From Clostridium sp. CAG:417 (lineage in GTDB: Bacteria; Bacillota_I; Bacilli_A; RF39; UBA660): 64,000 bases of DNA. Location of the stretch: NCBI GenBank assembly GCA_000432835.1, contig FR890375.1, forward strand, positions 26,412 through 90,411. The letters run 5' to 3'. The translations under genes were made by a program, and so were the position numbers. Below the pieces are notes generated by a model, which did not search any database, was not told the DNA's origin, and saw only the letters and a program-made list of their open reading frames with translations. Position 1 is the stretch's first letter; each line of letters begins with the position of its first letter. Shown here in pieces: positions 57,452 to 59,937 of the stretch.

Positions 57452-57479
57452 AGAAAAAAGACTAGTTTGACTAGTCTTT
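57452..57479 (-). terminator. rho-independent terminator between HerA-like gene and ffh
   Basis: Minus strand reads AAGACTAGT-CAA-ACTAGTCTT followed by TTTTTTC. An extended -10 TGTATAAT for ffh overlaps its T-run. Confidence 0.55.
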
Positions 57480-57487
57480 AGATTTTA

Positions 57488-59833
57488 TTACTTATCTTCC
57501 GTAACAACCTTAATGTTTCCAAATCCCTCCATTAGGTTAGGACTAACATTTTGACCGGCTGGGATTATTATTTGTGGTTGTTGTTCTCCTAAAGTAATGT
57601 TAGGTTTTAAACTTGTTTCTGTATTTAAGAAACTTTGAGCCCCAGGGATACTTACTATTGTATCGTTTGTTGGAATATATGTAGACTCTGGATTTAGTGC
57701 GCCATCATCTACATTTGCATTGTAGTTTTGAACACTATTATATGGATGCATAACATCATTATTGTTTAGCTGTGAAGGTTGTGGATTTAAATCTTTGTTT
57801 TGTGGTACTTGTTCGTTTGTATTATTGGCTGGCATAGCTGGAATATCAATAAATTTTGATGGTTGCTCCTCGCTTTGTTTTACCGGATTTTGTTCAGGAA
57901 TGTTAGTACTTACCTGTTCCATCATATTAGGAGCTTTATTATTTAAATCTGGAACTGCAGTTGGAATTCGTCCTGCTCCATCAGGAGTGTTTGATATAAA
58001 TGTTGGACTATTTACTTGTTGTTTTGGTATTTCTACCTTTGTTTCTGGTTCTGGATTTTTAGGCTCTGCTTTTTTATTACCATTGCCATCCCATATTTTT
58101 ACAACATCACAGTTACCACTCTTAGGTGCTGGATCAGGCATTTTTAGTCTGACTATTAATGGAATTTTAAAAGCCATTCCGAAAGCTAGACAGGTTCCAG
58201 CTTGAAGCGTCTTTTGTTTTTCAACAATTTCATCACTAATATTTGGAACCATCTTTTTGATATAATCAACATCCGCAGGGTGATTCATCTTGAAAATCAA
58301 GAAATTAGAGCATTGGGAAATAACGGTATCACTCATTTCAACAGGTCTTTGAGTAATTAATCCTAAAATAACACCATACTTACGTCCTTCTTTAGCTATA
58401 CGATCAAATATATTATAACCAATTAGGAAAGTATCTGTATCATTTTGAATATATCTATGTGCCTCTTCAACAATTAAATGAAATGGAATGCTTGCCCTAT
58501 TAGATAACCCTTTAGCAAAACTAAATATTAAACGGGAATATATTTTAACAATAACCTTAGCGAAAGTATCATCAACATCATCTAAGTTAATATTTACAAA
58601 TTGGAATTTACGACCATTAGTTATTAGTAATGACGAAATGAATTGTTCTAGATTTATAAAACTTGGATAATCAAAATACTTTGCATTTTGACCGACTATT
58701 AGAGAATGCAATCTTACTTTTATTGTAACTGAGTCACCATATGTATTTTCATTTCTTAACCAACCTTCACTAATCAAAGTAAAGTTAAGCGCTTTCTCTA
58801 ATGTATCTAAGGTATAGAAAACAGATCCTTCTGGCTCGTAATTATCGTATTCTTCTTTAATAAATTTATTAAGATATTCTGTCATCAAAACGCTTTCAGT
58901 AAAGTTACCAAATTGATCAATTAAGAAACACTCACGGAATTTTCTAGTATAACCAACTCCTTGGATTGTACTTTCGAGATTAAATTCAGGTGTTGAACAT
59001 GAAGCGATGATAGAAAATATATCATTTCTCTTATTTGGTGCGGTTTGATTAGTATATAGTATAGCCATAATTGCCTTGGCTATTAAATGGTTTTTATAAG
59101 CATTAGCGTCTACTTCTTCTTGTGAAAATATGCGAGCTAATTTTAACATTCTTTCAATTATGGGAAGTTGTGAATGATTTGTTACATTTAAAAGAAGGGC
59201 TAAATCTTGTTCGTTAAGTAAATATATAGGTATACGAAGTTTTTCAGCATAGGGATCTATTTCATTGGTAGAAATAAAGCGATAATTATAGTTTGAGTTG
59301 ATACTAGAAAGATTTTTAAAGGCATTATAGTATTCTGCTGATGAGTCAAACATAATTATATTTGATTTATATGGGAAGAGTCTTTCATCTTCAAACATAT
59401 TTTGAAATATTCTAGATACACCACAAGACTTACCAGAACCACTATTACCAAAAATGGCAAAATGATTACTGAAGAAACCGTTTACATCCATAAATACAGG
59501 TCTATCATTATAAAATGGACTAGCTCCTAAAAGCATATTTCCATATTTATCTTCTCCTGTTATTAAAGGTATTTCTTCTTCTTTAATAACGCGACAAGTG
59601 GCATCAAGAGTTGGTTTACGTAGTGTTCCACCGATTAGTCTCCCGTCTCTTATTTCACCTAAAAATCTTATTTTTACTATATTATCTTCTAAATCATCTA
59701 CTTCGCCTAAAATTTTTTTTTCACTATCCTCGAAGATTACATGTAGATTCATTAAATTAAAAGTTATATCAGCATCATCTCTTAGTTTAACGTTTGCTGA
59801 CTTATCACTTATGTATACTATTTTGTCAAACAT
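57488..59833 (-). CDS. HerA/DUF87-family ATPase with about 180-aa Q/N/P-rich disordered C-terminal tail (781 aa)
   Basis: Walker A AIFGNSGSGKSCG after an N-terminal barrel-like region. Walker B HLIVEEAHRYI. HerA-typical C-terminal block RKYGVILGLITQRP...QCSNFLIFKMN. Low-complexity tail from about residue 590. Confidence 0.7.
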   Translation of the reverse strand: MFDKIVYISDKSANVKLRDDADITFNLMNLHVIFEDSEKKILGEVDDLEDNIVKIRFLGEIRDGRLIGGTLRKPTLDATCRVIKEEEIPLITGEDKYGNMLLGASPFYNDRPVFMDVNGFFSNHFAIFGNSGSGKSCGVSRIFQNMFEDERLFPYKSNIIMFDSSAEYYNAFKNLSSINSNYNYRFISTNEIDPYAEKLRIPIYLLNEQDLALLLNVTNHSQLPIIERMLKLARIFSQEEVDANAYKNHLIAKAIMAILYTNQTAPNKRNDIFSIIASCSTPEFNLESTIQGVGYTRKFRECFLIDQFGNFTESVLMTEYLNKFIKEEYDNYEPEGSVFYTLDTLEKALNFTLISEGWLRNENTYGDSVTIKVRLHSLIVGQNAKYFDYPSFINLEQFISSLLITNGRKFQFVNINLDDVDDTFAKVIVKIYSRLIFSFAKGLSNRASIPFHLIVEEAHRYIQNDTDTFLIGYNIFDRIAKEGRKYGVILGLITQRPVEMSDTVISQCSNFLIFKMNHPADVDYIKKMVPNISDEIVEKQKTLQAGTCLAFGMAFKIPLIVRLKMPDPAPKSGNCDVVKIWDGNGNKKAEPKNPEPETKVEIPKQQVNSPTFISNTPDGAGRIPTAVPDLNNKAPNMMEQVSTNIPEQNPVKQSEEQPSKFIDIPAMPANNTNEQVPQNKDLNPQPSQLNNNDVMHPYNSVQNYNANVDDGALNPESTYIPTNDTIVSIPGAQSFLNTETSLKPNITLGEQQPQIIIPAGQNVSPNLMEGFGNIKVVTEDK

Positions 59834-59867
59834 GTATACTCCCCTCTTTCTTATTCTTTATGTAAAC

Positions 59868-59896
59868 ATTATACTATTTGTACCCCGTTTTAGCAA
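59868..59896 (-). promoter_or_regulatory. candidate sigma-A promoter TTGCTA-17-TATAAT driving the HerA-like gene
   Basis: Minus strand reads TTGCTAAAACGGGGTACAAATAGTATAAT. RBS AAGAGGGGAG before the ATG. Confidence 0.5.
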
Positions 59897-59937
59897 GATT
59901 AGTTTTCCTAAAAAAAATACTAGTGTCTAGCATTTTA

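Follow-up and report, generated by a model that had tools for sequence, protein, structure and literature searches.

In model Firmicutes, ylxM and ffh are adjacent. In the 64-kb stretch analysed here (64,000 nucleotides of contig FR890375.1 from Clostridium sp. CAG:417, referred to as the window), an initial annotation made from the sequence alone had placed a 781-residue open reading frame (ORF) between them, and this reading frame was confirmed (59833..57488 on the minus strand, the end coordinate counting the stop codon). Its product resembles HerA. To our knowledge, bacterial HerA has so far been studied as one half of two-gene machines, either with NurA in end resection or with SIR2 or DUF4297 in phage defence. 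The locus raises the question of whether the gene is a genuine HerA, whether it arrived recently and what such a protein would do in this place.

The gene encodes a HerA-family P-loop ATPase. In the clade to which the window belongs, it holds a fixed place between ylxM and ffh and forms a transcription unit of its own, and it is part of a monophyletic HerA branch that has no partner gene and is inherited vertically in uncultured low-GC gut Bacilli. What is new is a partner-less, core-genome branch of HerA with a putative disordered docking arm.

The HerA fold and a fixed place between ylxM and ffh

The HerA motifs quoted in the initial annotation are all present in the ORF, and the assignment was borne out at the profile level. 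The Pfam model DUF87/PF01935 ("Helicase HerA, central domain") scored 69.3 bits (E 6.7e-19; cut-off 23.2), residues 92-590 matched the best PADLOC HerA model at 7.1e-103, and nine HerA-type chains of solved structures matched by sequence, the best being 9c1m (2.8e-44). In a 44-sequence alignment, G129, G132, G134 and K135 of the Walker A motif GNSGSGKS (residues 129-136, 59426..59449, minus strand as for all features of this gene) are invariant. E456 and E457 of the Walker B motif HLIVEE (residues 452-457, 58463..58480) are nearly invariant and the following A458 is invariant. Q495, R496 and P497 are nearly invariant in ITQRP (residues 493-497, 58343..58354), which we take to hold the conserved Gln and Arg of the FtsK-HerA superfamily. 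Further motifs are VEEAHRY (455-461), RKYGVILGLITQRP (484-497) and QCSNFLIFKMN (507-517).

An AlphaFold2 model built on the same alignment has a predicted local distance difference test score (pLDDT) of about 90 for residues 1-580, which comprise an N-terminal beta-barrel, a RecA-like core and a helical insert. The barrel, a HAS-like domain of approximately residues 1-90 (59564..59833), has predicted strands at residues 2-8, 12-17, 31-35, 40-49, 52-62, 65-69 and 79-82. The RecA-like ATPase domain with its inserted helical bundle occupies approximately residues 91-585 (58079..59563), the helices of the bundle lying at about 208-403. When the model was compared with the PDB using Foldseek, the 50 best matches were all HerA chains (E 9e-30 to 1e-22), with alignments spanning about 600-690 columns; they came from DUF4297-HerA, SIR2-HerA, Sulfolobus HerA and Thermococcus HerA-NurA entries. 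The best target-normalised template modelling (TM) score was 0.78, for 8yhx_A, at a root-mean-square deviation of 4.8 Å. As modelled, the protein has all three domains of the HerA fold, namely the barrel, the RecA-like ATPase and the helical bundle. No membrane segment or secretion-type domain was found in the Pfam scan or the AlphaFold2 model.

To assess how general the arrangement is, one genome per species was scanned, giving 229 relatives, and the best 80 of the 229 loci were used for clade counts. All 80 come from uncultured gut metagenome-assembled genomes of the "Bacilli", "Tenericutes" or "Mycoplasma sp. CAG:877" type, among them Candidatus Faecimonas and Ca. Onthousia, both assigned by NCBI to Bacilli incertae sedis. 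The initial annotation had proposed looking for ylxM followed directly by ffh in relatives; what we found instead was the HerA-like gene in 80/80 species-level loci, with ylxM (59938..60231 in the window, minus strand; UPF0122 HTH protein, Pfam UPF0122 1.9e-22) upstream of it in 68 of the 70 assessable ones and ffh (56119..57426, minus strand, with SRP54 domains in the Pfam scan) downstream in 61 of 70. More precisely, ylxM lies directly upstream (<400 nt) in 56 of the 80 loci and after 0.4-3.5 kb of inserted unrelated genes in 12; it is absent from 2, and 10 loci lie on contigs too short to show it. The corresponding figures for ffh are 48 adjacent, 13 after an insert, 9 with none within 3 kb or more and 10 with too short a contig. 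The inserts consist of miscellaneous genes, none of them for a SIR2, DUF4297 or NurA protein; one subclade has a block containing fmt.

In that subclade (L060 and L064-L071) three genes stand between the HerA-like gene and ffh, encoding a ~411-aa protein without a Pfam match, fmt and a ~247-aa membrane protein. The same kind of block adjoins priA in the window (17823-20727, minus strand), and its placement looks like a rearrangement within the clade.

The protein is conserved at the level of core genes. Across the clade the median identity of its core is 77.8% (range 75.6-92.5%), compared with 72% for FtsY, 80% for RNase J and 84% for Ffh. Column identity across 81 species reaches 70-97% in the RecA-like ATPase domain, and the barrel is 73-84% conserved. 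Walker A, EEAH and [ST]QRP were each present in 240/240 members checked from the two large subfamilies; this strong purifying selection on the ATPase motifs speaks for the importance of hydrolysis. A protein identical to that of the window (P0001) represents a cluster of 354 member sequences; the sources name the protein only "ATP-binding protein". Among 50,697 phage records and 72,556 plasmid records there was no close homologue, identity reaching 32% at most.

The initial annotation had also given the gene its own promoter and hairpin terminator, and both sites are present. A promoter-like TTGCTA-17-TATAAT (59868..59896) precedes the gene, and an intrinsic terminator with a 10-bp stem, a 3-nt loop and a T-run (57457..57479) follows it. 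The promoter-like site of ffh, TAGTCA-17-TATAAT (57445..57473), has its -35 element inside this hairpin and its -10 element directly after the T-run. Promoter-like matches are no commoner in this AT-rich stretch than in shuffled sequences (40 observed versus 36.2 +/- 6.6), so the promoter call rests on conservation in relatives: TTGnnn-16..18-TAnAAT is kept upstream of the HerA-like gene in 63 of 76 related loci, often after the T-run that ends ylxM. The hairpin and T-run 3' of the gene are kept in 44 of 45 relatives, and a TAnAAT box with an AGGTGAT ribosome-binding site precedes ffh in all 45. With the ffh promoter conserved across the clade, what had been read as a promoter rebuilt after an insertion is ancestral for the clade.

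The HerA-like gene has a purine-rich leader of the type AGAATAG(A/G)GGG (59834-59867) between its -10 box and its start codon. This leader is conserved clade-wide (L001-L047) and ends in GAGGGG in relatives. It may be only an extended form of the ribosome-binding site, which was read from the sequence as AGAGGGGA (59840..59847), 7 nt before the ATG. The intergenic regions around the gene had no Rfam match to an RNA element. For ffh, the true start is probably the ATG at 57426 (MFENL...) rather than the GTG at 57435, judging by the N-terminus MFESLGDRLQ that is conserved in relatives.

These data bear directly on whether a mobile or foreign gene recently entered the ylxM-ffh operon of this genome, the reading given in the initial annotation and one that the gene's own promoter and terminator might suggest. 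About 80 species-level genomes, as well as a sister lineage with 45% identity, have the same gene with the same signals in this position. The GC content of the HerA core (0.29-0.31) matches that of its flanks, the higher value of the tail (0.35) being due to its amino-acid bias. No direct or inverted repeats bracket the gene, and there is no integrase among the neighbouring ORFs. A recent origin by insertion is refuted, and any such event would be older than the clade. The ylxM-herA-ffh arrangement probably dates from the common ancestor shared with the sister lineage.

The wider family and the disordered tail

When 1.84 billion 50%-identity representatives were searched exhaustively with HMMER, only 191 of them reached E <= 1e-30, and about 10 of these align end to end from residue 1 with 37-46% identity. 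Their gene neighbourhoods differ. The sister lineage, P0123 (45% identity, 943 aa with a long tail), lies directly upstream of ffh, like the clade of the window. P0127 (43%, 663 aa) and P0125 (45%, 753 aa) lie directly upstream of sepF-divIVA, followed by ileS in the case of P0127. The same position is held by P0323 (595 aa), which represents a populous subfamily and has dnaE and a complete FtsK a few kb further on. P0128 (41%, 576 aa) is found on three contigs 44 nt downstream of rmuC, an RmuC-family gene by its Pfam match (4.2e-57). P0129 (42%, 583 aa) stands between rpmH-rnpA-yidC-jag and dnaA-dnaN-recF-gyrBA, P0133 (37%, 582 aa) follows a ParA/MinD-superfamily ATPase gene, and P0130 (39%, 587 aa) stands alone. 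A profile search seeded from the outgroup members found at least 7,885 sequences at E <= 1e-20 among 8,000 candidates scored; most are about 590 aa long without a tail, and they are named at most "ATP-binding protein" or "HerA-like ATPase".

Several further features were observed in these relatives. At locus L098 (8001-17299) a herA-like gene, sepF, divIVA, a 308-aa ORF, dnaE and a complete ftsK lie within 9 kb. At the catalytic motifs, P0123 (L082, 406-3237) reads LIDNAH instead of LIVEEAH and GEVSS instead of TQRP, and P0133 (L093, 805-2553) reads LEKADRY and VQKVTE; from these substitutions, both proteins may bind ATP without hydrolysing it.

The absence of a nuclease or SIR2 partner noted in the initial annotation extends through this group. 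No such gene was found in the scanned parts of the window. No SIR2 gene lies beside a homologue in the 20 of 80 clade loci and 9 outgroup lineages whose ORFs were read, and no DUF4297 or NurA gene in the same 20 clade loci; no effector neighbours were seen at the loci of the relatives P0123-P0323 (the 37-46% identity tier and P0323). SIR2 genes appear in the next tier, where P0135 and P0136 (33-35% identity) and plasmid copies (28-32%) have one directly upstream and are located in defence islands or on plasmids. Neighbour-joining trees were calculated from 583 core columns with 200 bootstraps. The partner-less group was split from the SIR2-linked and other HerA proteins in 200/200 bootstraps, the window clade was likewise recovered in 200/200, and the two ffh-linked lineages, the window clade and P0123, grouped together in 91.5%.

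A variable part of the protein in the window clade is its C-terminus, which had been described as a Q/N/P-rich, low-complexity and disordered tail. This description holds for residues 586-781 (196 residues, 57491..58078), which contain 14% N, 13% P and 8% Q (N+Q+P+S+T 48%, compared with 25% in the core) and have a pLDDT below 50 for residues 591-754. No DNA tandem repeats were found in the coding sequence of the tail. Across the clade the tails range from 22 to 419 aa (median 164), are about 15% identical where they can be aligned and are rich in N, S, P, V and T and poor in K, R and aromatic residues.

The tail is not featureless, however, as it ends in conserved short motifs. The tip of the window protein, PQIIIPAGQNVSPNLMEGFG (residues 753-772, 57518..57577), shares PxIIIPxGQNxSxxLMEGFG with those of L001-L010 even though the linkers before it cannot be aligned, and the pLDDT climbs to 52-61 over this tip, with a short predicted helix at 765-770. 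The reading frames of the clade tails always reach a short conserved tip, whose type tracks the subclade; other types are [VI]PxTDxGxPL[IV]x[IL], NGTPLVSITP, SPIPEINxNN and DDDDLGPDFS. Tail words of this kind, GTPLV, PIPEI and IIIP among them, were found in 11-12 tails compared with <0.3 in shuffled sequences, and P[LI][IV].[IL] occurs in 35/81 tails compared with 2.0, both counts being inflated by shared ancestry; the tip word GPDFS is also conserved among clade tails. Some sepF-linked relatives have a disordered arm of 120-190 aa at the N-terminus instead, and 4 of 5 of these carry a conserved MGLFGEN-like tip. A disordered arm with a conserved end peptide, gained at either terminus, is what would be expected of a tether to a binding partner, and from its sequence the variable-length tail with its conserved tip looks like such a tether.

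The N-terminal-arm relatives with the tip MGLFGEN(L/F)... are P0125, P0288, P0362 and P0373 of the sepF-linked subfamily. The FtsY proteins of the clade also start with MGLF(N/S)KIKN, a likeness that may be coincidence.

Proposed role and alternatives

We propose that the protein is a housekeeping ring ATPase that handles the chromosome around division or repair and docks via the tip of its tail, a reading to which we give slightly better than even odds (roughly 0.55). Like other HerA proteins it would form a ring, and this ring would use ATP to move along or remodel DNA. The process served would be housekeeping chromosome handling at cell division or in recombination and repair. The long disordered tail would act as a flexible tether: through its conserved end peptide, the motor would dock onto a partner whose gene lies elsewhere, perhaps a protein of the divisome or of DNA maintenance. 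SftA, the soluble FtsK-like translocase of Bacillus subtilis, whose septal localisation has been proposed to depend on SepF or FtsA (PMC9320952), would be the closest functional parallel. The proposal draws on the known activities of HerA proteins, on the sepF-divIVA, dnaA, rmuC and parA-like neighbourhoods of the relatives, on the tether-like arm and on the precedent of SftA. The initial annotation had offered either a single-protein arrangement or a housekeeping translocase of unknown role; the evidence favours a housekeeping ATPase. Of the refuting condition set in the initial annotation, universal presence at this position in the clade together with an annotated housekeeping function, half applies: the gene is near-universal here, but no such function is annotated.

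Several points weigh against this proposal. Ring formation, DNA binding and translocation are attributed to the protein by its likeness to the family. The neighbours of the gene vary between lineages, which makes guilt by association weak, and the synteny with ffh may be functionally meaningless. SaHerA of S. aureus, structurally the closest solved HerA by target-normalised TM-score (8yhx), is inactive and trimeric by itself and requires its SIR2 partner for hexamer formation (PMC11514289), so a partner-less HerA may not be autonomous. The lineage of P0123, with LIDNAH and without TQRP, suggests that ATP hydrolysis may be dispensable there. A genuine FtsK (four transmembrane segments, alpha, motor and gamma) is encoded 5 kb from the sepF-linked P0323, so the HerA-like protein is not a simple FtsK substitute; replacement of FtsK was rejected, at least for the P0323 lineage, given the complete FtsK on the same contig. 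Mimicry of the FtsZ C-terminal peptide by the tail was likewise rejected, as [DE][IVL]P[AGST][FMLIV] occurs in only 5/81 tails compared with 2.6 in shuffled sequences; the window tail does contain FIDIPAMP, which resembles YLDIPAFL of E. coli, and an FtsZ sought for comparison with the tips was not found, there being no GGGTG[ST]G-bearing ORF in 100 sequences of related loci. Finally, all family members come from uncultured organisms, and the partner search covered gene neighbourhoods.

Other explanations were considered with the same data. An anti-phage HerA, working as a single protein or with an effector elsewhere in the genome and kept at this locus by chance, would account for the fact that the best profile matches are PADLOC HerA models (7e-103), that the closest solved structures are defence HerA proteins and that its closest relatives with a partner (28-35% identity) belong to SIR2-HerA pairs located on plasmids or in defence islands. 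Defence genes, however, are expected to be patchy and to turn over fast, and a gene that holds the same core-genome position in 80 species and is conserved like FtsY has the opposite pattern. The lack of an adjacent effector gene in the loci whose ORFs were read, the low scores with the NCBIfam HerA_antiphage models (159 versus 850 and 148 versus 800), the separate branch with 100% bootstrap support and the absence of phage or plasmid copies above 32% identity also argue against defence, and we consider it highly unlikely. Members of the FtsK-HerA superfamily such as VirB4 and EssC act in secretion and protein export, and the position between ylxM and ffh, kept in about 80 species and in the 45%-identical sister lineage, could point to work with the signal recognition particle (SRP) pathway (FtsY, YlxM and Ffh), for example as an ATPase handling secreted or membrane proteins. 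Against such a role, the gene is transcriptionally insulated, with a promoter and terminator of its own and a separate promoter for ffh; unrelated genes separate it from ffh in 13 loci, and no ffh lies within at least 3 kb in 9; its orthologue-like relatives adjoin sepF-divIVA, rmuC or dnaA rather than SRP genes; and the protein lacks membrane segments and secretion-type domains. An SRP function is therefore quite unlikely in our estimate.

Defence HerA proteins activate SIR2 or DUF4297, and the HerA-like protein might correspondingly be mainly a scaffold or regulator and not a processive DNA pump, a ring or trimer that recruits and activates an unlinked enzyme (which could be a nuclease such as RmuC) and uses ATP for switching instead of translocation. 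This would fit the rmuC gene found 44 nt upstream on three contigs of one lineage, the altered Walker B and Q-R motifs of P0123 and P0133, and the conservation (73-84%) of the barrel, the domain that binds partners in known HerA complexes (PMC11514289); SaHerA itself requires its partner to assemble (PMC11514289). The rmuC linkage is nevertheless confined to one lineage, with no rmuC among the scanned ORFs of the window, and none of the 240 members checked from the two large subfamilies departs from Walker A, Walker B or QRP. We hold a scaffold to be unlikely, but a serious alternative.

The proposal of a housekeeping chromosome motor can be extended to its origin, although only tentatively and at odds that we put well below even. 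A branch of the HerA stock from which the SIR2-paired defence proteins come would have been domesticated into a core machine, a second DNA-handling ATPase that is independent of FtsK. It would be recruited to the divisome or nucleoid by a disordered arm with a short docking peptide at its end; the arm is found at the C-terminus in the ffh-linked clade and at the N-terminus in some sepF-linked lineages, while most lineages lack it. If the housekeeping motor is real, the same ATPase scaffold has moved between immunity and core cell biology, and a major uncultured gut group has a new player in chromosome handling or division. In either case there is a large HerA branch without a linked partner, conserved like an essential gene and located among SRP, sepF-divIVA, replication-origin and recombination genes. 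The variable arm with its conserved tips could serve as a peptide bait for finding partners. No published work on this HerA branch, with ylxM, cell division, SepF or DivIVA, was found in the literature searched.

Other features of the window and comparison with known systems

Upstream of ylxM lies ftsY (60515..61531, minus strand). The two are separated by a gene for an 89-aa two-helix membrane protein (60233-60502, minus strand) with weak DUF3953/DUF6442 matches only, which was found at the same position in 39/80 related loci with 29-53% identity (tblastn with the window protein). Beyond ffh there is a P-type cation ATPase (53382..56006, minus strand), followed by a gene for a 110-aa protein (52981-53313, minus strand) that has an N/D/M-rich low-complexity N-terminus and a Cys/His-rich C-terminus (CVHRTF..H..H..C) and is without a Pfam match. 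This protein recurs in the P0123 lineage as well as across the clade (L007, L031, L036, L056, L070 and L082), its gene lying downstream of ffh and ahead of rpoZ (52614..52820 in the window). Elsewhere in the window, a probable integrated mobile element (627-7428) contains a large serine recombinase (4187..6025, minus strand), a Mob_Pre relaxase (2670..3995, minus strand) and a 654-aa ORF without a Pfam match (627..2591, plus strand), and ends beside the only tRNA gene of the window (7358..7428, minus strand). Two surface-protein genes are located at 32258-34696 and 47992-49827 (both minus strand); one encodes a leucine-rich-repeat protein of the DUF285/BspA type whose N-terminus bears a pilin-type methylation motif, and the other a SpaA/thioester-domain adhesin.

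Among known systems, the SIR2-HerA (Nezha) proteins, with structures for SaHerA (8yho/8yhx) and E. coli (8j4u, 8sub), have the same three-domain fold and ATPase motifs as the HerA-like protein. The entry 8yhx ("Cryo-EM structure of the trimeric HerA") is likely to come from the paper that reports a cryo-EM structure of trimeric apo SaHerA from the S. aureus Sir2-HerA system (PMC11514289). In contrast to the SIR2-HerA systems, our gene has no SIR2 neighbour, occupies a core-genome position and is inherited vertically, and its product belongs to a separate branch (100% bootstrap) and carries the 196-aa disordered tail with its conserved tip. The distribution of SIR2-HerA is island-like, whereas the HerA-like gene is found at a fixed syntenic position in 80 species. 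The NCBIfam anti-phage HerA models scored 159.2 against a cut-off of 850 (NF042944) and 148.5 against 800 (NF042943).

The DUF4297-HerA systems (9c1m, 8xau, 8ziq) provide the best sequence match to a solved structure (9c1m, 2.8e-44) and the best Foldseek E-value (8.7e-30), although identity over the structural alignment is about 22% and there is no DUF4297 (Cap4-like) nuclease beside the HerA-like gene. The HerA-NurA proteins of archaea and some bacteria (4d2i, 9x1m) have the same fold (E ~4e-23), and their ring translocase on DNA is the kind of activity that we infer for the HerA-like protein. They differ in that our gene has no NurA, Mre11 or Rad50 neighbours and in the structural-alignment identity of 15-16%, and the NCBIfam HerA equivalogs scored 84.6 against a cut-off of 970 (helicase_HerA, NF040819) and 104.4 against 800 (NF040937). 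Since the defining partners are missing and the equivalog cut-offs are not reached, the HerA-like protein lies outside the SIR2-HerA, DUF4297-HerA and HerA-NurA systems.

SftA, FtsK and SpoIIIE belong to the same FtsK-HerA superfamily, and SftA is likewise a soluble motor without a membrane domain. FtsK has a long low-complexity linker; the HerA-like protein has its domains in the opposite order, the motor preceding the linker. The protein had no Pfam match to PF01580 FtsK_SpoIIIE or FtsK_gamma at E <= 0.01, and its relatives have only "faint" precomputed PF01580 matches. Three HerA-like subfamilies lie directly upstream of sepF-divIVA, and recruitment of SftA to the Z-ring is supported by SepF (PMC9320952). 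The HerA-like protein is not a member of the FtsK/SftA family, but it may work like one.

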